Part shown: piece by piece, positions 1-60,845 of the stretch
How positions within the stretch are numbered: position 1 is the stretch's first letter
Layout of the letters: each line of letters starts with the position of its first letter
Origin: Eledone cirrhosa
Taxonomy: Eukaryota
Assembly (NCBI GenBank): GCA_964016885.1
Contig: OZ024742.1
Coordinates: 31,434,001 to 31,498,000 of the forward strand
Direction of reading: 5' to 3'
Length of the DNA: 64,000 nucleotides
Position numbers and translations under genes: made by a program
Notes under the pieces: model-generated
Database searches by the model: none
The model's input: the letters and a program-made list of their open reading frames with translations, nothing else
What the model was told of the DNA's origin: nothing

Positions 1-384
1 CAGACGCTGGAAGAAGTCGGCTCTTTCCGCCCCGAAGGGGGCATAAAGACCGACCAGTCTGAAAGCCCCGCCTTCACCGCCTCCGACGTCCAGCACCAGT
101 AATCGACCCCCCGGGTCCGAGTGAACAATCTGTACGTCGAGAGCCAGACGTTTATCCAGCAGTACGGCAACCCCCCCCCCCCCCCGCCTCCGGGTTGACA
201 GAGAGATGCGTGCATCTCAAAGTCATCGAAGGCGGGCGCCAGCTGTCTCACGCTGCTGATCCGACTCTCGCAAACAACCATCACATCTATACTTTGTGAC
301 CTGAGGTCACTTAGAAGCTTTGCTTGCTTCCAAGCTGAGCCCAGGCCACGCGCGTTCAAACAGCCAACTCTCAATTGATCTATT
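1..384 (-). pseudogene. LINE ORF2 N-terminal apurinic-like endonuclease domain (partial)
   Basis: Manual translation gives IDQLRVGCLNARGLGSAWKQ...DVMVVCESR...GVAVLL...DPGGRLLVLD...RLVGLYAP, matching APE/EEP motifs; reading frame uncertain across the C-run at about 171-185; not in the ORF track. Confidence 0.85.
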
Positions 385-2218
385 TTGGTGTTGAAAGTGA
401 AGAAAGAAAAGCACCTACCTCTCCGGGTTGTGTAATTTCCATGGCATCAGGTGTGTTGGGTGGAGGGATGTTTTGTGGTGGTGTGGGGGTACACGTGTGT
501 GGTGGGGTTGGGGTATTTGGAGTTGTGTCAGGGAGAGGGGCGGTTATGGGGAAATCTTTCAAGAGGACGCGATTTAACGGTTTTAAACAGGGGGGGGGCT
601 CACGTCCTGTCTAAATTGTTCTTTTAAGGAACGATAAAGGTCCAGAGGGACCTTTATCATTTTTAAATGGGTGAAGTTCTCTGTTGAGATAAAGTTTGGC
701 CCTTCGGTCTGCACCATAGGGTTATTGTTTATTAATTTAACCAGTTTTTTGTTTTCTTTATTTATATATGTGTATTGCAACGTCTTTTTTTGTGATGCTG
801 TCAATGTTTCGGAGAGGGGAGGCGCAGATTTATTTTTGTTTGTTGAGGCTGAGGTGTTTTTGATTGGAGTTGGTGTTTGTGTGTGGGTTATTTGTGGTGT
901 GCTGGGTGTGTGTTTTCTTTTTTTTCTTTTAACTTGTCTGAAGGCTTCGCCTCCTTCTTCTTCAGAAGTTGGGGGAAACTCTTCAGCGCTAGGTGGGAGG
1001 GACGTGTTGTGTGGTTGTTTTTTTTTTGCGGGAGGGGTAAATTTGTTACTGTTTTTTTAATTATTTGTTTGGAATGGGTTTTGTGGTGGTGGTGGTGGTG
1101 GTAATGTTTGTCGTGCTTGTGGTTGGTGATGGTGGTGGTGATGTTTGTGTTGTGGTGGTGATTTTTGTGTCGTGCTTGTGTTTGGTGCTGGTGGTGGTGA
1201 TGTTTGTGTTGTGTTTGTGGTTGGTGGTGTCTGTATTTTGTTTGCTGTGTGTGGTATTAGTGTATTTTTGGAGGTGGGTGGTGTTGGTGTACTGTTTGTG
1301 GTGGGTGTGGGCAATAGTCCTTTTTGGGGGATACGTTTCGGGCAGTTAGCCTTAACGTGTCCCCTTTCCGTGCATAAATAGCATGCTGGTCTTCTCCCCT
1401 CTACAATTATATCTATTGGGGTGAGGTCATCCAGCCAGATGTGATCCGGGATTTGTGCTATTCTTTCGGGCCTCATTTGGACTAGTATGTCGAGGCCCAT
1501 TCCCAGGAACGCATCTCCAGTTGCCTTCCCCATTGACAGCATTGTGTCTTCGCCCATGTCTATGAAGCCAGCAATAGACCACCAGAAGTCCATTGTGGGC
1601 AGCATTGTTTTTACTTTTACTCTCTGTGTTCTTCTACCCATGTAGGAGGGATAGAAGCTGTATGTTGTCAATGAGAGTGGGCTTAGGGAAAGCTTCTGTG
1701 CCGTTTCCTTGTCTTTTGTTAAGACCGAAATGCTGCCATAGAGTCGGTCCTTTCGTATGAAGAGAATATTCTTCATATAGTCTTTTAGGACCAACTCTAT
1801 ATCCATTTGGCTGGGCTGTGCTGGCTTTCTTGTTTGGTTCAATATAGTTCTGAAGAGAACTGTGCTCTCTGTTCTCGCTTTCTTGAATTCTGGGGGGGGG
1901 GGGGGAGTTAATGGAAAACATTCCGTTCTCCCCCAAGACTATTTGTTTTTTCGCTTCGGCCAGTTTTTCTCTGGCGGCAGTTAAGTCAATTGGTGTATAT
2001 GTTATGGACTGTTTTGTTTTCTGGGCGAAAGTTGCCCTGTTGTTATTTGTATTATTTTCTGTTTGTTTGTTTTCCGTTTGCTCATTTTCCTTAACATTTG
2101 TTTTTTCCTTTTCCTTGTTTGTTTCGTTGTCTAATTTTGTTGTAATTATTTTTTGTTCTTCAGACTTGGGGGGCGTGGCAGAGCTAATGGCAGACATGTC
2201 TGCCATCTTTTCCGCCAT
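380..2218 (-). pseudogene. LINE ORF1 (gag-like nucleic-acid chaperone), frameshifted
   Basis: ORFs 1634..2245, 1057..1842, 583..804 and 380..562 are collinear; CCHC knuckle CYLCTERGHVKANC; Pro/Thr-rich tail; breaks fall at or near homopolymers such as the G-run at 1892-1906. Confidence 0.8.
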
Positions 2219-2440
2219 GCTGCCAAGAAAGAAATTTTTCGGCAAAAAAATAGATATTTATTTTAGCCCCTAAAAAGGGGGTAAATGCAAAAATGTTTCC
2301 CTAAATAACAGGGGTTAGTGTTCCAAATGTGTTGCACTGAAAAATTTATCTGGTACTTACTATAGTAAGGGTAAATCCCGATGGAATAGCGGAGCCGATG
2401 TGAAGCGTGTCTTACTCTATCAAGAGAGATAGATAAATAG

Positions 2441-2471
<31 letters not shown>

Positions 2472-2477
2472 GATAGA

Positions 2478-3190
2478 TATAAATGAGAGGTATAGAGATT
2501 GTTTTAGCGATAAGCTAATAGTATTCTATAACATATATGCGACTATAACGTCAAGATGGGAAAAGTAGTTAACGTAAGATTTAGGAATAATAATTCAAAC
2601 TCATCTCAAAAGAGAATCAGGATATAAATTCATCCACAGAATTTAGTGAAATCCATGGAAAAATCAATAGACCTTTAACTCATGATAAAATAAAGTTTAA
2701 ACACTTATCCTTCAATTTGGAATAACATCAAATGCTCTGTATAGTCTTAAAAGACTATTTCATGAAAACTTTCAGTGGAGATGGTCACGGTTGGATTTCA
2801 ATCGTCAGCAGAGCTCTCACAGTATTATAATCCGAAAAAGGGAATTCTAAAACTGGCTAGTTCGCCATCATGTGTAATTATGAAAAAGCACATGAGGAAA
2901 AACAGGGCTAGTGACGTCAGGATGAAAGTGAATGTTTATTTACAAGAAATAGCAGTCAAATACATTCTGAAAAAAACTCTACAAAGGGAGTTCAGCAAAT
3001 AGCAATAATTATCACAGTTTTTATAAAAAAAACCGGGATTAGTCACAGATAGTTTAAGCACTCTAGGAAAAGAATCCGAGTATAAGTATAAATGAGAGGT
3101 ATAGAGATTGTTTTAGCGAGAAGCTAATAGTATTCTATAACATATATGCGACTATAACGTCAAGATGGGAAAAGTAGTTAACGTAAGATA
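2478..3190 (-). mobile_element. Non-coding HHR element, family Y: about 609-bp monomer plus about 100-bp terminal direct repeat
   Basis: 2481-2580 is repeated at 3090-3190; homologous copies at about 12975-13400 and 17330-17785. Confidence 0.7.
2734..2814 (-). ncRNA. Type I hammerhead ribozyme with full stem III
   Basis: Minus strand reads gctctg CTGACGA ttgaaa...tttcat GAAA tagtc-ttttaa-gacta TA cagagc; stem I 6 bp, stem III at least 5 bp. Confidence 0.8.
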
Positions 3191-4329
3191 TAGATTGATA
3201 GATAGATAGATTGAAACTATAATGCAACAAATTAATTAAAACACTCATATATATATATATATGACTTTTAATTAATTTGTTGCATTATAGTTTACCAACC
3301 TGAACCACCGGTTCTACCTATTGGTAAATAGCCTAACATAAATGGTATATATATATATGTATATATATAATGGTATATATATATGTATATATATATATGT
3401 GTGTGTGTTTAATTTTGACAGCCATGAAACTTATGTTTGTCATTTCAAACTAAGAAACAGTACTTTGTTTATTTCAATACATATTTCCAATAACAATAAT
3501 ATCACAAAACAACCTTATTTCGTTTACTGACGAATACATGATGAACAGATACCGGTACAAGGACAAAACAGAGCCGAAAATCTGCGTCTCCCTCACCATC
3601 CTCCGGGGAAACACTTTCTCTATTCTGTCCGCCGGGGCCAGCCAGCGTGCGGACCCCCATTTGCTCATAATAGTGAGGAGAGGAGAGCCGGAGACAGCGA
3701 CAGTGGGAGTTTGTTCTTTTGTGTTCAGACGTGGTGTATATGTATATGTTTCACACACGCACACACTCACAATAACCATCTAACCCACCAACAAACCACA
3801 ATTAAATACATAACAAAGGTTAATAACAACAGCACAGATATATTCTAGCAAATATTAGTGAAACTTATTCATTCATTAGATATCTAGAACGATAAAATTT
3901 ACTTTTAGAATTAGTTAATTCAACCCCATGACTTACCGTTAAATATGTCCTATAACGACAACCAAAAGTAACAGCAACGTGCGGGAATAATTAAATAAAC
4001 TTTGTCATAGGCTTCAATCAAACGATTCGAATTATTAATGATAACGAGATTAAAAACAGATCCGAGTGAAAAAATTCCTTTACATTTTTTCTTGTTTTTT
4101 TTTTATGGAATATAAAGTTTGGTTAACAAAATATATTTAATGAGATCAATAGCAACAGGAGCAGCAGACTTTACACATTGAAGTCGTGTGGAGGCGTTAA
4201 TTTTACCTTTTCAAACCCCACCAGTAAGAAAACCTGACCTCATTTGTGTATGTATATATATATATATATATCAACAGAGAAAAAGAAAACAATTTGTCAT
4301 TGATATACGAGTTTGGCATATGTTAAACT

Positions 4330-4837: not shown

Positions 4838-5473
4838 CGGCGATATCCAATTTTAGGGGACTAAATGCTGCTTACGTGCTGTAGTTGCTGCTTACTTGTA
4901 TGAGGCTATTCCAACAAATTTACATTCCCTTTTTTTTAGCCGTTAAAAGAAATATAGATTTATTTATTGTTTTTTTTTGCGATTTATTTGCCACTGGGAA
5001 AAGAAACCCCTTGGAAAAGAAATGACCCAGATGCGTTTGCAACGAGGAAACTGTGGGGATATGTAGCCGGCCAACAAATGGTCCTCTTCTTCCGATACCA
5101 CTTCGAAAGAAGGATCAAGGTGGAGTGAAAGTAGCAATAATGGCCCGTGTAAGTGGGCCATCTCTCTATATCGGCTTGTACAGGTAAGAGAAGAAGGGAG
5201 CACCCCCCTCTCTCTCTGTGCTCCCTGGCAGAAAGGTCGCACACTTTCTACGGGGGTGTGTGTGACCCCAAAAGGCTGCCTAACGTGGCAAATAAAGAAA
5301 TCTATGCCCAGTGGCAAATAAATCGCAAAAAAAAACCAATAAATAAATCTATATTTCTTTTAACGGCTAAAAAAAAGGGAATGTAAATTTGTTGGAATAC
5401 ATTGAAGTAAGCAGCAACTACAGCACGTAAGCAGCATCAGCAGCATTTAGTCCACTAAAATTGGATATCGCCG
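4838..5473. mobile_element. Fold-back element with about 160-bp inverted arms enclosing an internally deleted Tx1 3' fragment
   Basis: 4838-4998 is the reverse complement of 5307-5473; 5000-5305 aligns in pieces to 15790-16490. Confidence 0.7.
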
Positions 5474-8989: not shown

Positions 8990-9318
8990 TATAAGATCAA
9001 AAGATGGTTAAAGGAGTTCCATGTATTTTATTATGCGCATTTCAAAAACAAACATCATCATGCAATAATATTTGTGTTTTCATCAGATAAAACAGGAGAA
9101 CATGATATGAAGGCTAAAAAACACTTGTGGATAGTGCAGTTTTAAATCAACATATCATATGTTGATTTAAAACTGCACTATCCACAAGTGTTTTTTAGCC
9201 TTCATATCATGTCTTCATGTTTTATCTGATGAAAACACAAATATTATTGCACGATGATGTTTGTTTTTGAAATGCGCATAATAAAATACATGGAACTCCT
9301 TTAATCATCTTTTGTTCT

Positions 9319-11727: not shown

Positions 11728-12420
11728 AATTGTTTCTACTTTTGGCACAAAAGCAATTATCCCAGTGTATTACTGGTACTTTATTTTATCGACCCCGTAA
11801 GGATGAAAGGCAAAGTTAACCTCGGCCGGATTTGAACTCAATCCGTAAAGGGATAACTGTGCTGCAAAGCATGGCGTCCGACCCTCTACCGATACTGCCA
11901 ATCCACCAAATATATAATAGTGGGAAATTGGTGGGAAAATTCATCTATGTTAGAAGTAAATGTGAAAACTGAAGAGATGTTTTCCTCTTATTAAGCCTTA
12001 TCGGCGAAACATAGTCTTCACTGGCTCGTTCGATGTGTAGAAAGAGTATTAAGAATTTAATTAGAAAAACAGTGTGTTAAGGGAAACCGGCTTGTAAAAG
12101 ACTTAGAAAGTATATGGTGTGGTAATGTTATAAAATACAACCAAACGCCGACAAACTGTGAAATAATTGTTTCTACTTTTGGCACAAGGCCAGCAATTAC
12201 CCAGTGCATTACTGGTACTTTATTTTATCGACCCCGTAAGGATGAAAGGCAAAGTTAACCTCGGCGGGATTTGAACTCAGAATGGCAAGGACCATGAAAT
12301 AAACTGTGAAATCATTGTTTCTACTTTTGGCACAAGGCCAGCAATTACCCAGTGTATTACTGGTACTTTATTTTATCGACCCCGTAAGGATGAAAGGCAA
12401 AGTTAACCTCGGCGGGATGT
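11728..12420 (-). mobile_element. Cluster of three tRNA-derived SINE copies (family 1)
   Basis: Shared body (sense) gagttcaaatcccgccgaggttaactttgcctttcatccttacggggtcgataaaataaagtaccag with a B-box; copies at about 11728-11908, 12163-12285 and 12312-12420. Confidence 0.8.
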
Positions 12421-12520
12421 GAAATAATGATGACAAATATATCATAGAAGATTTTGCTGTTGCTGCTTGTTGACTGAATATCCAGCTGGAGATTTGTCTT
12501 TGTAAATCATTAGGATGTAC

Positions 12521-12698: not shown

Positions 12699-12807
12699 AA
12701 TTAGTATATCTACCAACATATGTATACAGATGCATACCTAAGCTAGCAAATATATATGTTATGTCTTAGTAACTTTGTGATTCTATGCAAGGGGATGCAC
12801 AACAATT

Positions 12808-12920
12808 ATATGAAAGACGTAAACAAGAAAATTATGAAAATCGACTTACTTACTAAAATTTCACTCCAGGAGTGAAATTTTAGTAAGTAAGTCGATTTTC
12901 ATAATTTTCTTATTTACGTC

Positions 12921-12928
<8 letters not shown>
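12808..12928. repeat. About 120-bp near-perfect palindrome
   Basis: atatgaaagacgtaaa...tttcactcc a ggagtgaaa...tttacgtctttcatat; the arm resembles 17225-17283. Confidence 0.85.
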
Positions 12929-12980
<52 letters not shown>

Positions 12981-13228
12981 GAAAGGTATAGAAAACATTG
13001 TAGCGAAAAGCCAACAGTATTCCATAATATATAAGTGACTATATCGTCAAAATGGGAAAAATAGTTAACGTAAGATGTAGGAAAAATAATTCAAACTCAT
13101 CTCAAAGAGAATCAGGATATAGATTCGTCCACAGAATTTAGTGAAATCCAGGGAAAATCAATAGAGCCTTAACTCATGATAAAATAAAGTTTAAAATACT
13201 CATCCTTCAATTTGGAAAAACTTCAAAT

Positions 13229-13308
13229 GCTCTGTATAGTCTTAAAGACTATTTCACGAAAACTTTCAGTGGAGATAGTCACGGTTGGAATTCATTCCTC
13301 AGCAGAGC
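13229..13308 (-). ncRNA. Type I HHR, family Y copy 2
   Basis: gctctg CTGAGGA atgaa...ttcgt GAAA tagtc-tttaa-gacta TA cagagc. Confidence 0.8.
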
Positions 13309-13405
13309 TCAACTCGATAACCAATATTCTCACAGATTAATATGCCAAAAAGGGATTTTAAAACAGGGTAGTTCACCATCATGCGTGATTATGAAAAATA
13401 AAACG

Positions 13406-13471
<66 letters not shown>

Positions 13472-13473
<2 letters not shown>

Positions 13474-13548
13474 GGGTGTCCTAAAAAATGTATACACATT
13501 TCAACAACATTCTAATAAATATGTGTATACATTTTTTGGACACCCTGT
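13472..13548. mobile_element. About 77-bp Tc1/mariner-type MITE
   Basis: TIRs cagggtgtcc(t)aaaaaatgtatacaca / tgtgtatacattttttggacaccctg in a TA-rich context. Confidence 0.7.
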
Positions 13549-13645
13549 GTATATATAGAATATTAGAGAGAGTCGGGGACAAACTATCTGTAAATAGTTA
13601 CACTACTATTCCAAATTTTACTAGTTTAAAACTGGTAAAATCCTG

Positions 13646-13676
<31 letters not shown>

Positions 13677-13678
<2 letters not shown>

Positions 13679-16488
13679 AGCCTCCAATAGAAATAGGAAG
13701 GAAAGGGAGTTGGTAGATAGTGTAGAAGAGGCAATTAGAAGCGGCGACGTGGCCAGAGTGCTAGCGTCGAGAACGGCCCTGGGCCAGTTCTTCGACGCGA
13801 AACACGAAGGCTGCATCGTCCGAAGCAAAATACGTGCTCTGGGAAACGAGGGGACCAAAGCTGTTAGCTGGGCCCGCGTGACAGAAGCCAAAAGAGGGAG
13901 CAGATCCACTATCCGGTCTTTGCGAGACCAGGATGGACGGGTGATCCTTGAACCTAAGCAGATGTGCGAGGCTTTTCAAAAGCACTTTGCCGGATTGTTC
14001 GGAAGGGGCGGGGGGCCGGTTGGGGACGTGGACTTCGGTCCATACCTCGACGGCCTGCCGCGTCTCTCGGACAGGGAGGCGAAGTCCTGCGAGGAGCCGA
14101 TTTCAGCCGCTGAGATAGAGGACGTGCTGAGCCAATGCGGCAAACGCAAATCCCCGGGTCTCGATGGTCTTCCATACGAACTATATCTAGCTATGCCGGA
14201 CTTGTTCCCCGAACTCCTCGAGGCGGTCTACTGCAACTGGCAACAGAACGGGAGAATTCCCTGTGCTGTGACCAAGGGCGTAGTCACGCTAGTGAGGAAG
14301 GACGAGAACAAGGGGGACGATATAAATAATTTCAGGCCCATAACTCTGCTAAATACAGAGTTACAGATTTTGGCCAAGGTGCTAGCAAAGAGGTTGGCGC
14401 TTGTCGTGGGCAACCTGGTGGGAGATGCGCAGACATGTGCTATCCCGTCCAGGTCCATCCACGATAACCTCCACCTCATGCGATACATCATAGAGAGGGT
14501 TGGGAACGAACCCGGCTTTGGTGGGGCCCTGATCAACTTGGATCAATCTAAGGCATTCGATAGGGTCGACCATGGCTACCTGGATGCGGTGCTAGCGGCG
14601 GCAGGCTTCGGACCCGTTTTCAGGGGCTGGATCAATGCCATGCACAGCAGCCACATCTGCTCTAGGGTCAAGGTGAACGGCTACCTCTCGGAGCCGTTCG
14701 AAATCGCGCGGTCGATCCGACAGGGGTGCCCTCTCTCCTCCCTTCTGTATGTAATGACTCTAGAGCCACTGCTGCGGAAGTTGGAGTTGTTGCAGGGCAT
14801 CCCGTTGGAACCGGGATTGCGGAAAGCGGTGTCAGCCTACGCCGATGACGTAACAGTAATGGTGTCGACGGCCTCGGAAATCGGGGCGATCGGCACCTTA
14901 CTGGAGGAGTACGAAAGGTTTACAGGGGCTAAGCTGAACCGGGACAAGTCGATCGGTCTGCAACTCGGCACGTGGAGGGGCAGATCGATGCCCTCCGATG
15001 GCGTCGTCGGGCGCTGGACGGAGGGCCCGGTGAAGTTACTCGGGGTCTGGTTCGGACCAGACCTCCAGGTGGAGAAGAACTGGGGTGAGGTGACGAACAG
15101 GGTGTTTGCACTGACCCAGAAGTGGGCCGAGTGCAAACTGTCCCTGAAAGGTCGGGCGGAGGTGGTGAACACTTATATAGCGTCCGTCATCTACTACCGC
15201 CTGACCGTTGTGCCTTGCCCAAGGGAAACGCTCGCCAAAATGGAGCGCGCACTCTTCCAATTCCTTTGAAAGAAGCGGGCTCCTATGGTGAGGAGATCCA
15301 TCTGCTGTCAACACCCTTCGAAAGGAGGGCTGGGGATGCCGTGGCTAATGATACGTAAACACGCATTAAGGCTACGGCACCTTCAGGTATTCCTCTCCGG
15401 TCAACCGGTGTGGGCCCCGTTTGTGAGGCGAGCCTTTCCCAGACTCGTCTCACTCACCGAGCTGCAATCCTGGGTCAAGCAAAGACCGAGAAAACTGGGC
15501 GCCTGGCACACCGCGTGTGCCCAGGCGCTCACGGCTCTCTGGCAGGCGGACCCGGCTGTCAGTGGAGAATCCACCTCGTCATTCTATAGAGGGCTGGTGG
15601 TTAGCAGGTGCGACGACGCCCTCGGAGAAGCCCTAGGCATGGAGGAAGACGAACTGGCCAACCTGTTCGGTAGGACATTCAGCCCGGGACCCATGGATAA
15701 CTTCCAGAGGTCCCTGGCCTGGCAATGCTACAGTAGGGCTCTGCCCGTTCGAGAAAGGCTCTACAGACACGGGCGCCCGGGTAGGGACCCATCGAAAAAG
15801 ATCTGTCCCAGATGCGTGTGCGACGAGGAAACCGTTGCACACGCATTGGTACACTGCTCGGGCATTGCCGATCTGTGGGGCTATGTCGAACAACTGCTGT
15901 CAAGGGTGGAACCGATCCGGTTGACCACCGAATCTATTGTAACGATCAAGCCGCCTCCCCTCTTCAAAAACGAAGGAGAGGCGGTGTTTCTGTGCGTAAT
16001 AGCCATGGCGAAAGAGGTTGTATGGTGGACGCGTCTGAAAGGACTGAGCTCAGACACTTTTCTCTCTGGCCAACAACTGGTCCGTTTCTTCCGATATCAT
16101 TTCGGAAGAAGGATCAGGATGGAGAGAGAGGTGCTGCACCCCAGCCGTTTCTATGAAAGATGGGTGAAAGTGGCGAGAATGGCCCGTGTGAATGGGCCTT
16201 CACTCTACATCAGACTATAGGTGAGGAAGATGAAAGACCAAGGGAGCACCCCTTCTCTGTGCTCCTGAGGAGAAGGGTTGCACACTTTTTTCGCGGGTGT
16301 GTGCGACCCCCAAGGCGCCTCCTCTCTATTGAGGACTTTGTTATAAATTTTATTTTTTGTTATATTTTATTTTATTTTATTTTTATATATTGTTATTGCC
16401 TCCTCCTTATTGAGGACGCCTTGTTTTGTAAACTCTCCCCATTGTACTTGTCCCACTTTTTGATGCCCTGGTGGCAAATAAAAAGAAA

Positions 16489-16490
<2 letters not shown>
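13677..16490 (+). mobile_element. 5'-truncated Tx1/L1-clade LINE (RT, C-terminal zinc finger, 3'UTR)
   Basis: GC-rich island flanked on both sides by (TATC)n; AATAAA and an A-rich end at about 16477-16490. Confidence 0.95.
13710..16220 (+). pseudogene. ORF2 reverse transcriptase with one in-frame stop
   Basis: KSPGLDGLP, NFRPITLLN, LDQSKAFDRV, QGCPLS, YADD and CPRC...HALVHC; ORFs 13710..15269 and 15285..16220 share a frame, split by TGA at 15267. Confidence 0.93.
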
Positions 16491-16584: not shown

Positions 16585-16692
16585 TATCTATCTAACTATC
16601 AATATATATGGTTAAGATTTAATCAAGGTAGTAATCACTACCTTGATTAAATCTTAACCATTTAACATCTCAGGGTATGTCATGTATCATTA

Positions 16693-16747
16693 TATTTTGT
16701 CTGATGAGGACGTACTGTTGTACATCCGAAATATGTATAATGAAATG
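16693..16747 (+). ncRNA. Minimal type I HHR preceded by a 50-bp palindrome (16608-16661)
   Basis: tattttgt CTGATGA ggacgtac-tgtt-gtacatcc GAAA tatgta TA atgaaatg. Confidence 0.75.
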
Positions 16748-17278
16748 TAATTGATCAAAAGAACATCTATTTTATTAATAGTTATATTTTAATATTAATA
16801 ACTCCAGAAAATTATTTTCACGTTGAGTGCTTCCAATCTACTGTAAAACTCATTCTTTAACATAATCATTGAATATTGTTTAACAATTTTATATATATAT
16901 ATATATATATATATTGGCCATGACTGCTGCTACGGTTGTAGGCAGGCCGCTGTCTTATTAGCAAACCACTTTCCACTGATTGACCTCGATGTCACGTGTT
17001 CGATTCTTTTTGAATTTGCCACAGACGTAGAGGCAGTGATTTTCTCAATGGCTTGGAATTCAGTCCACGCTTCGCTATTTCCTATCCACTGAATTATTTT
17101 TTAGTTTCCAGTGTCCTCGCTTTGCCTGGAAACTTACATGAGAATAGACTTTCCTGACGACGGAATGCTTCTCAATATTATTCTTCGGAAAATATATTTA
17201 CTCCATTCCAGAAACTAATTAGTTGGAAGTGATATTTTAGTAAGTAAGTTAATTTTATAATTTTCTTATTTTACGTCT

Positions 17279-17327
<49 letters not shown>

Positions 17328-17779
17328 GTCTCATTCTGACGTCACCAGCCGTGTCTCTCCATGTGCGTTTATTTTCATATTTACGCATGAGTTGAACTAG
17401 CCTGATTTTAAATTCCCTTTTTCCCTTTTTGACATATTGTGGCAGTGGGATTTGGGTTATCGTGTTGAGCTCTTCTGATTAACGATTCCAACCGTGACCA
17501 TCCCCACTGAAAGTTTCGTGAAACAGTCTTTTTAAGACTATATAGAGCATTTGTAGTTTTTCCAAATTGAAGGATGAGTATTTAAGCTTTATTTTATTCA
17601 GAGTTAAGGCTCTATTGATTTTTCCCTGGATTTCACAAAATTCTGTCTTGATTTTTTTTTAATTGAGTTTGAATTATTTTCCCACATCTTACGTTAATTA
17701 TTTTCCATTTTGACGTTATAGTCACTTATATATTATGAAATACTGTTTGCTTCACGCTCACAATAATTTCTATACTTTC

Positions 17780-17817
<38 letters not shown>

Positions 17818-21072: not shown

Positions 21073-22090
21073 AGTATGTATACGTACATACATATATGTA
21101 TACAGACGTACAGTAGTATGTATATATATATATACATACATGCACACATATATATATGTACGTATGGATTCACCGAACATTTATTATAATGCTCGGTGTG
21201 TTTGTAAACAAACATCCCGAATTAAGCCGTACAGTGTCTAGCAACCATCGTTGCTCATTTGTTCAACCCTGACAAAGGAACGCTGTACTAGTTTCAAGCT
21301 TATTAGCTATCTTCAGCAACGTATACCTTCCTGCCAGATGATTGAACGTCTGAAAGTATATACTTTCCTTATGCATATTAACGGCTGAGCAGCCTAATTT
21401 GCATATCGAGTGAGTTAATCGGCCGGGGTACCGAAAACGATAAACGGAAAAAATGAAACGAAATTTCATTTCTCACCCTTAGTACAGCTGTTACTTAAAT
21501 ATAAGTATGTATACGTACATACATATATGTATACAGACGTACAGTAGTATGTATATATTTCATTTCCCACACTTGATACGGGATGTTTGTTTACAAACAC
21601 ACCGAGCATTATAATAAATGTTCGGTGAATCCATACGTACATATATATATATGTGTGCATGTATGTATATATATATACATACTACTGTACGTCTGTATAC
21701 ATATGTGTATGTACGTGTACATACTTATATTTAAGTAACAGCCGTACTAAAAGTGGGAAATGAAATTTCGTTTCATTTTTTTCCGTTTATCGTTTTCGGT
21801 GCACCCGGCCGATTAACCCACTCGATATGCAAATTGGGCTACTCAGCCGTTAATATGCATAAGGAAAGTATATACTTTCAGACGTTCAACAATTTGGCAG
21901 GAAGGTATACGTTGCTGACGATAGTTAATAAGCTTGAAACTAGCACAGCGTTCCTTTGTCAGTGTTGAACAAACGAGCAACGATGGTTGCTAGACACTAC
22001 GGCTTAATACGGGATGTTTGTTTACAAACACACCGAGCATTATAATAAATGTTCGGTGAATCCATACGTACATATTTATATGTGTGCATA
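21068..22090. mobile_element. Family Z HHR element: two opposed partial tandems of an approximately 431-bp monomer
   Basis: Period 431 in both arms; HHRs at 21280-21322 (minus) and 21909-21951 (plus, cleavage-site U mutated to C). Confidence 0.8.
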
Positions 22091-22295
22091 TTTATATGTG
22101 TGCATCTCAAAATTATTTTTGAAAAGCATTAGAAATGCGCAACCGGTAAAAACTTAAAACTAAAACTGAATACTAACCAATACTTATTACTAATTTCTAC
22201 TTATTCCTAATTAAACTATTTTTCACTGGGAACAATTTGTCAGCATTTTCTTTTCCTTTTACTAATATATCACAACTCGTGTGTTACACCTCTAT

Positions 22296-28323: not shown

Positions 28324-28388
28324 TATTTTATTATATATATTTCAAGGGCAACCAAGACAACATTGGTGCGCTTTCATCAGATAAAATA
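28324..28388 (-). ncRNA. Minimal type I HHR, family W
   Basis: tattttat CTGATGA aagcgcacca...tggttgccctt GAAA tatata TA ataaaata. Confidence 0.8.
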
Positions 28389-45257: not shown

Positions 45258-46527
45258 ATAAACGGAAAAAATGAAACGAAATTTCATTTCCCACTCTTAG
45301 TACGGCTGTTACTTAAATATAAGTATGTACACGTACATACACATATGTATACAGACGTACAGTAGTATGTATATATATATACATACATGCACACATATAA
45401 ATATGTACGTATGGATTCACCGAACATTTATTATAATGCTCGGTGTGTTTGTAAACAAACATCCCGTATTAAGCCGTAGTGTCCAGCAACCATCGTTGCT
45501 CGTTTGCTCAACACTGACAAAGGAACGCTGTACTAGTTTCAAGCTTATTAGGTATCGTCAGCAACGTATACCTTCTTGCCAGATTGTTGAACGTATATAC
45601 TTACCTTATGCATATTAACAGCTGAGAAGCCCAATTTGCATATCGAGTGGATTAATCGGCCGGGTGCACCGAAAACGATAAACGGAAAAAAATGAAACGA
45701 AATTTCATTTCCCACTCATAGTACGGCTGTTACTTAAATATAAGTATGTACACGTACATACATATAAGTATACAGACGTACAGTAGTATGTATATATATA
45801 TACATACATGCACACATATATATATGTACGTATGGATTCACCGAACATTTATTATAATGCTCAGTGTGTTTGTAAACAAAAATCCCGTATTAAGCCGTAG
45901 TGTCCCGTATTAAGCCGTAGTGTCCAGTGTTGCTGGACACTACGGCTTAATACGGGATGTTTGTTTACAAACACACCGAGCATTATAATAAATGTTCGGT
46001 GAATCCATACGTACATATATATATGTGTGCATGTATGTATATATATATACATACTACTGTACGTCTGTATACATATGTGTATGTACGTGTACATACTTAT
46101 ATTTAAGTAACAGCCGTACTAAGAGTGGGAAATGAAATTTCGTTTCATTTTTTCCGTTTATCGTTTTCGGTGCACTCGGCCGATTAACCCACTCGATATG
46201 CAAATTGGGCTTCTCAGCTGTTAATATGCATAAGGTAAGTATATACGTTCAACAATCTGGCAGGAAGGTATACGTTGCTGACGATAGCTAATAAGCTTGA
46301 AACTAGTACAGCGTTCCTTTGTCAGTGTTGAACAAACGAGCAACGATGGTTGCTGGACACTACGGCTTAATACGGGATGTTTGTTTACAAACACACCGAG
46401 CATTATAATAAATGTTCAGTGAATCCATACGTACATATATAATATATGTGTGCATGAATGTATATATATATATATATACATACTACTGTACGTCTGTATA
46501 CATATGTGTATGTACGTGTACATACTT

Positions 46528-46530
<3 letters not shown>
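45258..46530. mobile_element. Family Z HHR element: fold-back of about 1.6 and 1.4 copies of a 420-bp monomer
   Basis: Period 420 and 419; inversion centre near 45929; HHRs at 45525-45567 (minus) and 46272-46314 (plus). Confidence 0.85.
46272..46314 (+). ncRNA. Minimal type I HHR
   Basis: acgttg CTGACGA t-agct-aata-agct-t GAAA ctag TA cagcgt; ACTAGT palindrome and GUA triplet. Confidence 0.8.
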
Positions 46531-51573: not shown

Positions 51574-51639
51574 TATTTTATCTGATGAAAGCGCACCATA
51601 GTTTGCTCTGGTGGCCCTTGAAATATGTATAATGAAATA
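51574..51639 (+). ncRNA. Minimal type I HHR, family W
   Basis: tattttat CTGATGA aagcgcacca...tggtggccctt GAAA tatgta TA atgaaata. Confidence 0.78.
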
Positions 51640-60502: not shown

Positions 60503-60845
60503 ATACACAATATATTAATAAATGGAAACTATATTTATAAAACCATATTTATTTTATTATATATATTTCAAGGGCAACCAAGGCAAATTATGGTGCGCTT
60601 TCATCAGATAAAATACAGATTTGTTTTATAAAGAAATATTGACATACCCGGAAAATGACTATCCAGGAAGCTCCAACCGTTAAGGTTGTCTTTTTTCCGG
60701 GTATGTCAATATTTATTTATAAAACAAATCTGTATTTTATCTGATGAAAGCGCACCATAATTTGCCTTGGTTGCCCTTGAAATATATATAATAAAATAAA
60801 TATGGTTTTATAAATATAGTTTCCATTTATTAATATATTGTGTAT
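60503..60845. mobile_element. Family W fold-back with two HHRs (60550-60615 minus, 60733-60798 plus)
   Basis: About 150-bp near-perfect arms; tattttat CTGATGA...GAAA tatata TA ataaaata with 8-bp stem I. Confidence 0.85.

Follow-up and report, generated by a model that had tools for sequence, protein, structure and literature searches.

Near the start of the window (the whole 64,000-nt stretch of Eledone cirrhosa DNA that was analysed) lies a non-coding repeat element with a type I hammerhead ribozyme (HHR) motif. Two further copies, both 5'-truncated, occur within the window; coordinates are collected in Table 1. Copy 1 comprises one 609-nt period plus 107 nt, or 1.18 units. The period is confirmed by the 107-nt direct repeats A and A', which have two mismatches, and an (ATAG)n tract continues past 3193, beyond the copy. 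GC content is 0.335 over 2001-4000. The longest stop-free stretch in six frames of the doubled unit measures 78 aa, with no ORF above this length; nor does the unit hold an ORF with reverse transcriptase (RT) and GIY-YIG, and the 26 ORFs scanned of the window's 137 gave no GIY-YIG match. The unit folds better than its shuffles (z -4.7, 0/20 reach it).

Table 1. Features of the repeat family and other hammerhead motifs in the window
Feature	Position	Strand	Basis or remark
Copy 1 element, A'-B-HHR-A, 716 nt, non-coding	2478..3193	minus	direct repeats, copy comparison
3' terminal repeat A	2478..2584	minus	3' end common to all three copies
5' repeat A'	3087..3193	minus	105/107 identical to A
(AGAT)n microsatellite	2423..2479		3' side of copy 1
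Site of 19-nt loss in copy 1	2816..2817	minus	copy comparison, loose ends in public runs
Type I hammerhead, copy 1	2814-2734	minus	pattern scan, folding, RNAalifold
Stem III, copy 1	2741..2758	minus	7 bp including A15.1-U16.1, U-rich loop; P 0.98
Stem II and loop II, copy 1	2762..2801	minus	U.U at base, then 5 A/U-rich pairs
Copy 2, 5'-truncated, 3' end in (AT)n	12968..13398	minus	copy comparison
Type I hammerhead, copy 2, intact core, A10.1-U11.1	13229..13308	minus	scan and folding
5' flank, copy 2, complementary to loop II	13310..13336	minus	12/12 proximal pairs at 13323-13310, about 8 distal
Copy 3, 5'-truncated, (TA)n both sides	17331..17792	plus	copy comparison
Damaged hammerhead, copy 3	17469..17548	plus	folding
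5' flank, copy 3, complementary to loop II	17443..17467	plus	11/12 proximal, 7-9 distal pairs
Inverted HHR pair	9024-9094 / 9218-9288	minus / plus	looser scan; typical of PLE insertions
Inverted HHR pair	60550-60615 / 60733-60798	minus / plus	looser scan; typical of PLE insertions
Short-palindromic HHR motifs	28324-28388; 51574-51639; 16689-16751	minus; plus; plus	looser scan
Short-palindromic HHR motifs, one family	21280-21322; 46272-46314	minus; plus	U.U at stem II base

All three copies share a 3' end about 262 nt past the predicted cut site, and their 5' ends vary. A microsatellite, (TA)n or (ATAG)n, stands at the 3' end in 3/3 copies and abuts both ends in two of them; in copy 2 it lies within about 10 nt. 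The combination of partial tandem duplication, fixed 3' end and variable 5' truncation typical of Penelope-like elements (PLEs) is thus seen here, in three copies only. No fourth copy was found in the 64-kb window with nhmmer, and exact-pattern scans returned no further family members from metagenome contigs, viral contigs or prokaryote genomes.

One unit was compared with four of the 11 listed public DNA runs, 8 of the 11 containing the stretch and none of the listed holders being an RNA run, which says nothing about expression. The head-to-tail joint (3085/3086 to 2478) is present in all four, and contigs extend past it for 170 nt (run X4) and 147 nt (run X5), against 107 nt in copy 1. No listed piece spans two HHRs; the joint contigs end 87 and 110 nt before the next one. 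The observed anatomy of the family comprises the HHR, the unit and its joint, a 3' end that is fixed, 5' ends that differ, and insertion sites in (TA)n or (ATAG)n.

Directly 5' of stem I, 19 nt that are present in copies 2 and 3 are missing from copy 1, and loose ends at 2816 occur in X1 (17 contigs) and X9 (163 reads). Over 2766-3085, record 16 of X5 is longer by a net 19 letters. The family unit is accordingly about 628 nt, and 609 nt is the length of copy 1 after the loss. The first-pass annotation had copy 1 releasing a unit of about 609 nt. This length is therefore not that of the family unit, and since the locus holds a single HHR, no unit can be released there by double cleavage.

Two side observations concern short motifs. 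Positions 2541-2547 in repeat A form a perfect 7-nt complement of the cut-site strand GACUAUA, unchanged in 3/3 copies, which may be chance. The only two TGACGTCA palindromes in the window (2912-2919 and 17337-17344) both lie inside this element family, about 100-130 nt upstream of the HHR; the motif, which we take to be CRE-like, could be part of an internal promoter.

Anatomy and predicted fold of the hammerhead

On the minus strand of copy 1, a 6-bp stem I (2814-2809 with 2739-2734) encloses the core segments CUGACGA (2808-2802) and GAAA (2761-2758). The latter is followed by UAGUC-UUUUAA-GACUA at 2757-2742 and by U16.1 and A17 at 2741 and 2740, which places the predicted cut at 2740|2739, after an AUA triplet. 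Stem III thereby consists of A15.1-U16.1, five further pairs and a U-A pair; its loop length is variable, with indels at 2748/2749 in public runs. Loop II spans 27 nt (2795-2769). The type I arrangement, with CUGANGA, GAAA and NUH in order and stem I open, is found in copies 1 and 2. Missing is the G10.1-C11.1 pair that is conserved, though not absolutely, in metazoan PLE HHRs (PMC4209133): copy 1 has U.U, copies 2 and 3 have A-U. Public reads show that both forms are common, 2801 A>T occurring in 86/173 and 60/129 X9 reads.

A strict descriptor (stem I of at least 6, stem II of at least 4 of 5, stem III of at least 5 pairs) recovers two motifs in the window, against none in 200/200 local doublet shuffles. 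RNAalifold returned all three stems from the alignment of the three copies, in which the pair 10.2-11.2 reads U-A, U.G and C-G; 94.7% of cells are paired in the three-stem model, compared with 29-47% when it is slid. The motif, with its unusually long third stem, is genuine. No Rfam hammerhead model is among the matches at E<=10 (0/2 and 0/2), nor among the 150 of 266 matches listed in another search. Single folds also allow a canonical extension of stem I that contains an internal loop; it was rejected because the consensus fold lacks it.

Copy 2 differs from copy 1 at N7 (G), 10.1, 10.6, 11.2 and a single position of loop II, and its loop III differs in length by one U. The HHR of copy 3 is damaged: it carries G8>U, and pairs are broken both at the foot of stem I (U.U) and within stem III (C.A). 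Thus scanning and folding bore out the first-pass annotation where it recognised a real HHR in copy 1, a conserved copy 2 with changes at N7 and in stem II, and a damaged copy 3. Its view that stem III is stable, unlike the minimal type, likewise agrees with our data. Minimal HHRs have a helix III that is absent or small and palindromic; here it is a 7-bp hairpin with P 0.95-0.98, whereas a looser scan found 12 HHR motifs in the window, of which nine have a short palindromic stem III, two belong to the present family and one (17148-17230) is a probable chance match.

Family variants listed inside the HHR fall at tolerated places, namely N7, 10.1 and 11.2 (U-A to U.G). Among the 40 of 133 variant rows listed, none affects the 12 core positions (0.8 expected, P 0.44), and none affects core, stem III and loop II together (P 0.007-0.02); we place no weight on this test, since the positions were selected with the data in view and reads that diverge are clipped close to the HHR. 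The change 2812 A>G was not retained as a stem I variant and is attributed to the way the 19-nt segment aligns. Loose ends in X9 at 2749 and 2795 suggest a subfamily with A-U replacing G-C at the first stem I pair, the two changes appearing on separate consensuses.

When the HHR by itself is folded with a nearest-neighbour model, stems I and III come out stable (P 0.95-1.0). Stem II does not (P 0.07 in copy 1, 0.00 in copy 2), owing to mispairing of loop II with either the core or the 3' strand of stem II. As modelled, stem II is the limiting element of the ribozyme. For engineered hammerheads AUA is a slow triplet (PMC3138052), and the axolotl HHR_Amex2, which has U.U at the base of stem II as well, showed modest monomer cleavage of 22% in one hour (PMC7229834). 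Self-cleavage may occur; the expectation of an efficient ribozyme sits poorly with the weak stem II, the U.U or A-U at 10.1-11.1 and the slow triplet.

The proposal that a full stem III permits cleavage as a monomer is half sustained. In its favour, the HHRs of fungal and protist PLEs have a large helix III and are active as monomers (Cervera & de la Pena 2014, PMC4209133). Against it, the stem III arm is near-palindromic and its self-duplex is predicted at -18.0 kcal/mol versus -10.6 kcal/mol for two hairpins, so that dimers are compatible with a full stem III.

Predicted pairing between the 5' flank and loop II

The 14 nt that immediately precede stem I in copies 2 and 3 are complementary, apart from two single bulges, to the 5' portion of loop II, and a distal block lengthens the potential helix to about 20 pairs. 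The helix uses no base of the core or stems; its links to stem I and stem II would measure 1 nt and 2-3 nt, respectively. By sequence, at least 4 bp between loop II and the stem I flank are thus available in copies 2 and 3, not in copy 1. The geometry is that of a candidate pseudoknot clamping stems I and II. Such pseudoknots are a known activating contact, which in one tested HHR sped cleavage 20- to over 100-fold (PMC3088659). The same proximal flank, read by eye, is present in loose-end consensuses of X1 (17 contigs), X5 (2) and X9 (163 reads); one X4 contig has a weaker flank with about 10/12 pairs.

Predicted duplex energies are -15.6 for copy 2, -24.4 for copy 3 and -7.0 for copy 1. Shuffled flanks reach these values in 137/5000 (copy 2) and 86/5000 cases (copy 3), modestly more than chance with p of only 0.02-0.04, whereas copy 1 is at chance level (1676/5000); random window stretches do so in 139/5000 and 19/5000, and shuffled loops in 225/2000 and 191/2000 cases (copies 2 and 3, which are not independent in these statistics). 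Covariation between flank and loop II is not significant, as 335/500 shuffles reach it in the three copies; one U-A/C-G change was read by eye in the distal part. It might therefore be argued that the complementarity is incidental and that the HHR is weak or protein-assisted in all copies, as the anole PLE HHR indeed needs protein (PMC11167929). We regard this as rather unlikely: in 2/2 copies that retain the flank, no other part of the unit pairs better with loop II (although the margin is just 0.1 kcal/mol in copy 2), the flank position that varies (A/T) is bulged, and a G.U pair survives the loop change in copy 2.

The consequences for the fold depend on how much of loop II is engaged. When the proximal 12 loop bases are held, stem II is not rescued (P 0.00-0.20). 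With all 21 held, the hammerhead becomes the minimum free energy (MFE) structure in 3/3 copies (P 0.47-0.82), although masking loop bases favours stem II almost by construction. A rough energy sum, which includes no pseudoknot loop penalties, favours this hammerhead fold in copy 2 (-27.8 vs -24.6) and copy 3 (-31.4 vs -25.7), though not in copy 1 (-17.6 vs -19.5). If all 21 nt were paired, a return linker of just 5-6 nt would have to span about 20 bp, and the complete form is for this reason geometrically borderline.

The same helix could act in the opposite direction, as an OFF switch that forms first during transcription, traps the 5' half of the HHR and protects the template. Copy 1, lacking the helix, would then cut better, in line with its ranking by the first-pass annotation as the best candidate. 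For the co-transcriptional intermediate of copies 2 and 3, the MFE structure is the flank:loop II helix. In copy 3 the hairpin it forms is the MFE structure with stems I and II open, which suits an OFF role no less than an ON role, and with 35 nt on either side the helix prevails over the nested HHR fold (-31.2 vs -19.2). The tight return linker, which the 20-bp form may exceed, and the derivation of integrated copies from uncut templates point the same way. Nevertheless, the helix pairs no core or stem base, the expected target of an inhibitor, and in copy 1 loop II mispairs with the core in the absence of the helix. A switch of this kind thus appears quite unlikely.

With the flank as a clamp, these predictions suggest that copy 1 is a poor cutter owing to the loss of its neighbouring flank and, as it also has a single HHR, most likely a dead-end insertion with a slow ribozyme. 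Copy 2, which retains the flank that pairs with loop II, is therefore the better construct for an assay, in place of copy 1.

Relation to known mobile elements

The window is rich in microsatellites (204 tandem-repeat rows). LINE-type elements at 1-2418 (minus) and 13647-16490 (plus) end in (ATCT)n tracts and presumably resemble microsatellite-targeting Tx1-type LINEs; the second includes a LINE remnant with RVT_1 and zf-RVT at 13647-16217. A dispersed repeat at 12153-12436 may be an octopus SINE, which it resembles. Inverted repeats, several centred on (TA)n beside mobile elements, occur at 3214-3293, 12807-12929, 13462-13557, 16605-16664 and 4838-5473. The nine short-palindromic motifs are of type I and fall into about four families; long inverted repeats accompany the 46272/21280 family (45318-46530, 95% over 1.2 kb; 21130-22097, 89% over 1 kb).

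The HHR might process the 5' end of a neighbouring LINE, the ORF1 of which begins about 220 nt downstream of copy 1 and in the same orientation. The ORF in question (1060-2257, minus) has a zinc knuckle with a weak zf-CCHC match (E 0.004). However, the RT-bearing LINE at 13647-16220 lies on the strand opposite copy 2 and ends more than 800 nt before copy 3, and both kinds of element simply sit in the same microsatellites. With no such arrangement at copies 2 and 3, the link was rejected and is very improbable.

The HHR is instead probably carried by a PLE derivative that is abundant, non-coding and non-autonomous, in broad terms a non-LTR retrozyme, whose head-to-tail unit measures about 628 nt. 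Since HHRs are common in PLE-related repeats, this type of element is to be expected. Animal non-LTR retrozymes share the non-coding, low-GC head-to-tail unit with one type I HHR (PMC7229834; 10.64898/2026.07.22.740005), commonly occur as dispersed monomers and have been put forward as non-autonomous derivatives of PLEs (Cervera & de la Pena 2020, PMC7229834; Li, Clavereau & Pollet 2026 preprint). As noted, axolotl HHR_Amex2 shares the U.U, and mussel HHRs lack the usual loop-loop nucleotides (PMC7229834). Differences are found in helix III, which has 1-2 bp in retrozymes against 7 bp here (PMC7229834), and in the unit, which exceeds the 170-400 nt of invertebrate retrozymes but falls inside the preprint's range of 51-972. 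Moreover, retrozymes form multi-HHR arrays and circles, whereas this element is known here from its DNA anatomy. The microsatellite insertion bias reported for PLEs (PMC8557442) counts for a PLE derivative of this kind; counting against it, 8/9 predicted Xenopus retrozyme dimers did not cleave when tested (10.64898/2026.07.22.740005).

The HHRs in the pLTRs of PLEs are similar as well: they too are of type I and precede an internal 3' end that is fixed (PMC4209133; PMC8557442; PMC11167929), and they come with partial tandem duplication, 5' truncation and microsatellite targets (Craig et al. 2021, PMC8557442; Frangieh et al. 2024, PMC11167929). Metazoan PLE HHRs, however, have a minimal or small palindromic helix III of 1-2 bp (PMC4209133, PMC6765202) and G10.1-C11.1, neither of which applies here, and in PLEs an ORF follows the HHR, whereas none does in this element.

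This raises the question whether the copies are mostly 5'-truncated ends (pLTR and tail) of an autonomous PLE, in which HHR cleavage is not needed for spread and the 609-628-nt unit arose through internal deletion, as a by-product of copying tandem transcripts that had not been cut. Depth in run X1 bears on both readings. Its 1254 contigs sum to a depth of 8k-127k, against 8-30 for its listed single contigs; as this sum is not a copy number, we describe the repeat only as abundant. The higher depth over the 3' part, 49k-127k over 2478-2792 and 8k-39k over 2793-3086, fits the retrozyme-like PLE derivative; the lack of a fall around the cut site (76k, 79k and 100k in adjacent bins) fits both readings; and the small depth at the joint, about 2300 as compared with 21k-65k at the two ends, fits the truncated ends. 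Inverted pairs in the style of PLEs are seen among other HHR families of the window, and the HHR of an anole PLE was dispensable for insertion in vitro, with unprocessed RNA as the main template (PMC11167929). All three copies run through the HHR, and integrated copies were hence made from uncut or re-ligated RNA; among the 22 of 248 loose-end rows listed there is no excess of copy ends at the cut site. On the other hand, in both X4 and X5 the listed long contig that covers B crosses the joint and enters A, the sole loose end listed at 3085 is again A-type sequence, none of the 22 listed leaves B into other sequence, and no ORF remnant is evident in the unit. On balance such an origin seems possible, though not likely.

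Under the retrozyme reading, source arrays would be transcribed as multimers, which the HHR would cut to unit length, and the units may circularise. A PLE reverse transcriptase would prime at a nicked microsatellite and start at the fixed site 2478 on a template that is uncut or re-ligated. An early stop would yield copies 2 and 3, and going 1.18 times round would give copy 1. The long stem III would make dimerisation unnecessary, while activity would hang on stem II, probably requiring the pairing of 5' flank and loop II; the pseudoknot would join the far ends of stems I and II and block misfolds.

Pseudoknotted HHRs, including that of human C10orf118, share the Watson-Crick pairing of loop II with sequence adjacent to stem I (Perreault et al. 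2011, PMC3088659), and make up about 40% of the HHRs in that paper, in all three types. The examples given there have 4-6 bp, whereas the present sequences would by prediction allow 12 bp, or as many as about 20, and unlike them the present candidate sits in a high-copy mobile repeat. In the literature covered, mostly open papers and including PMC6155905, we found no account of this family or of a pseudoknotted HHR with long stem III in an animal repeat; supplementary HHR drawings of PMC4209133 and PMC7229834 could show such variants. For the Octopus vulgaris repeat paper (PMC13282606), the accessible text has no instance of 'ribozyme', and one supplement has none of 'hammerhead' or 'retrozyme' and neither loop II motif.

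Summarizing, the element departs from described HHRs in its long stem III, weak A/U stem II, 27-nt loop II and complementary 5' flank, a build that Rfam models miss. We tentatively raise the possibility of an animal retrozyme family whose type I HHR acts as a monomer through the 7-bp stem III and a long (12-20 bp) activating pseudoknot formed during transcription. Equally tentatively, this would place a bacterial or C10orf118-style architecture in a high-copy animal mobile element, with copy 1 as a natural loss-of-clamp control. If the flank does control cleavage, the family would offer a simple test of how RNAs can be cut at one stage and yet serve as intact RT templates, and it would be a plausible mobile source for the solitary pseudoknotted HHRs of animal genomes.
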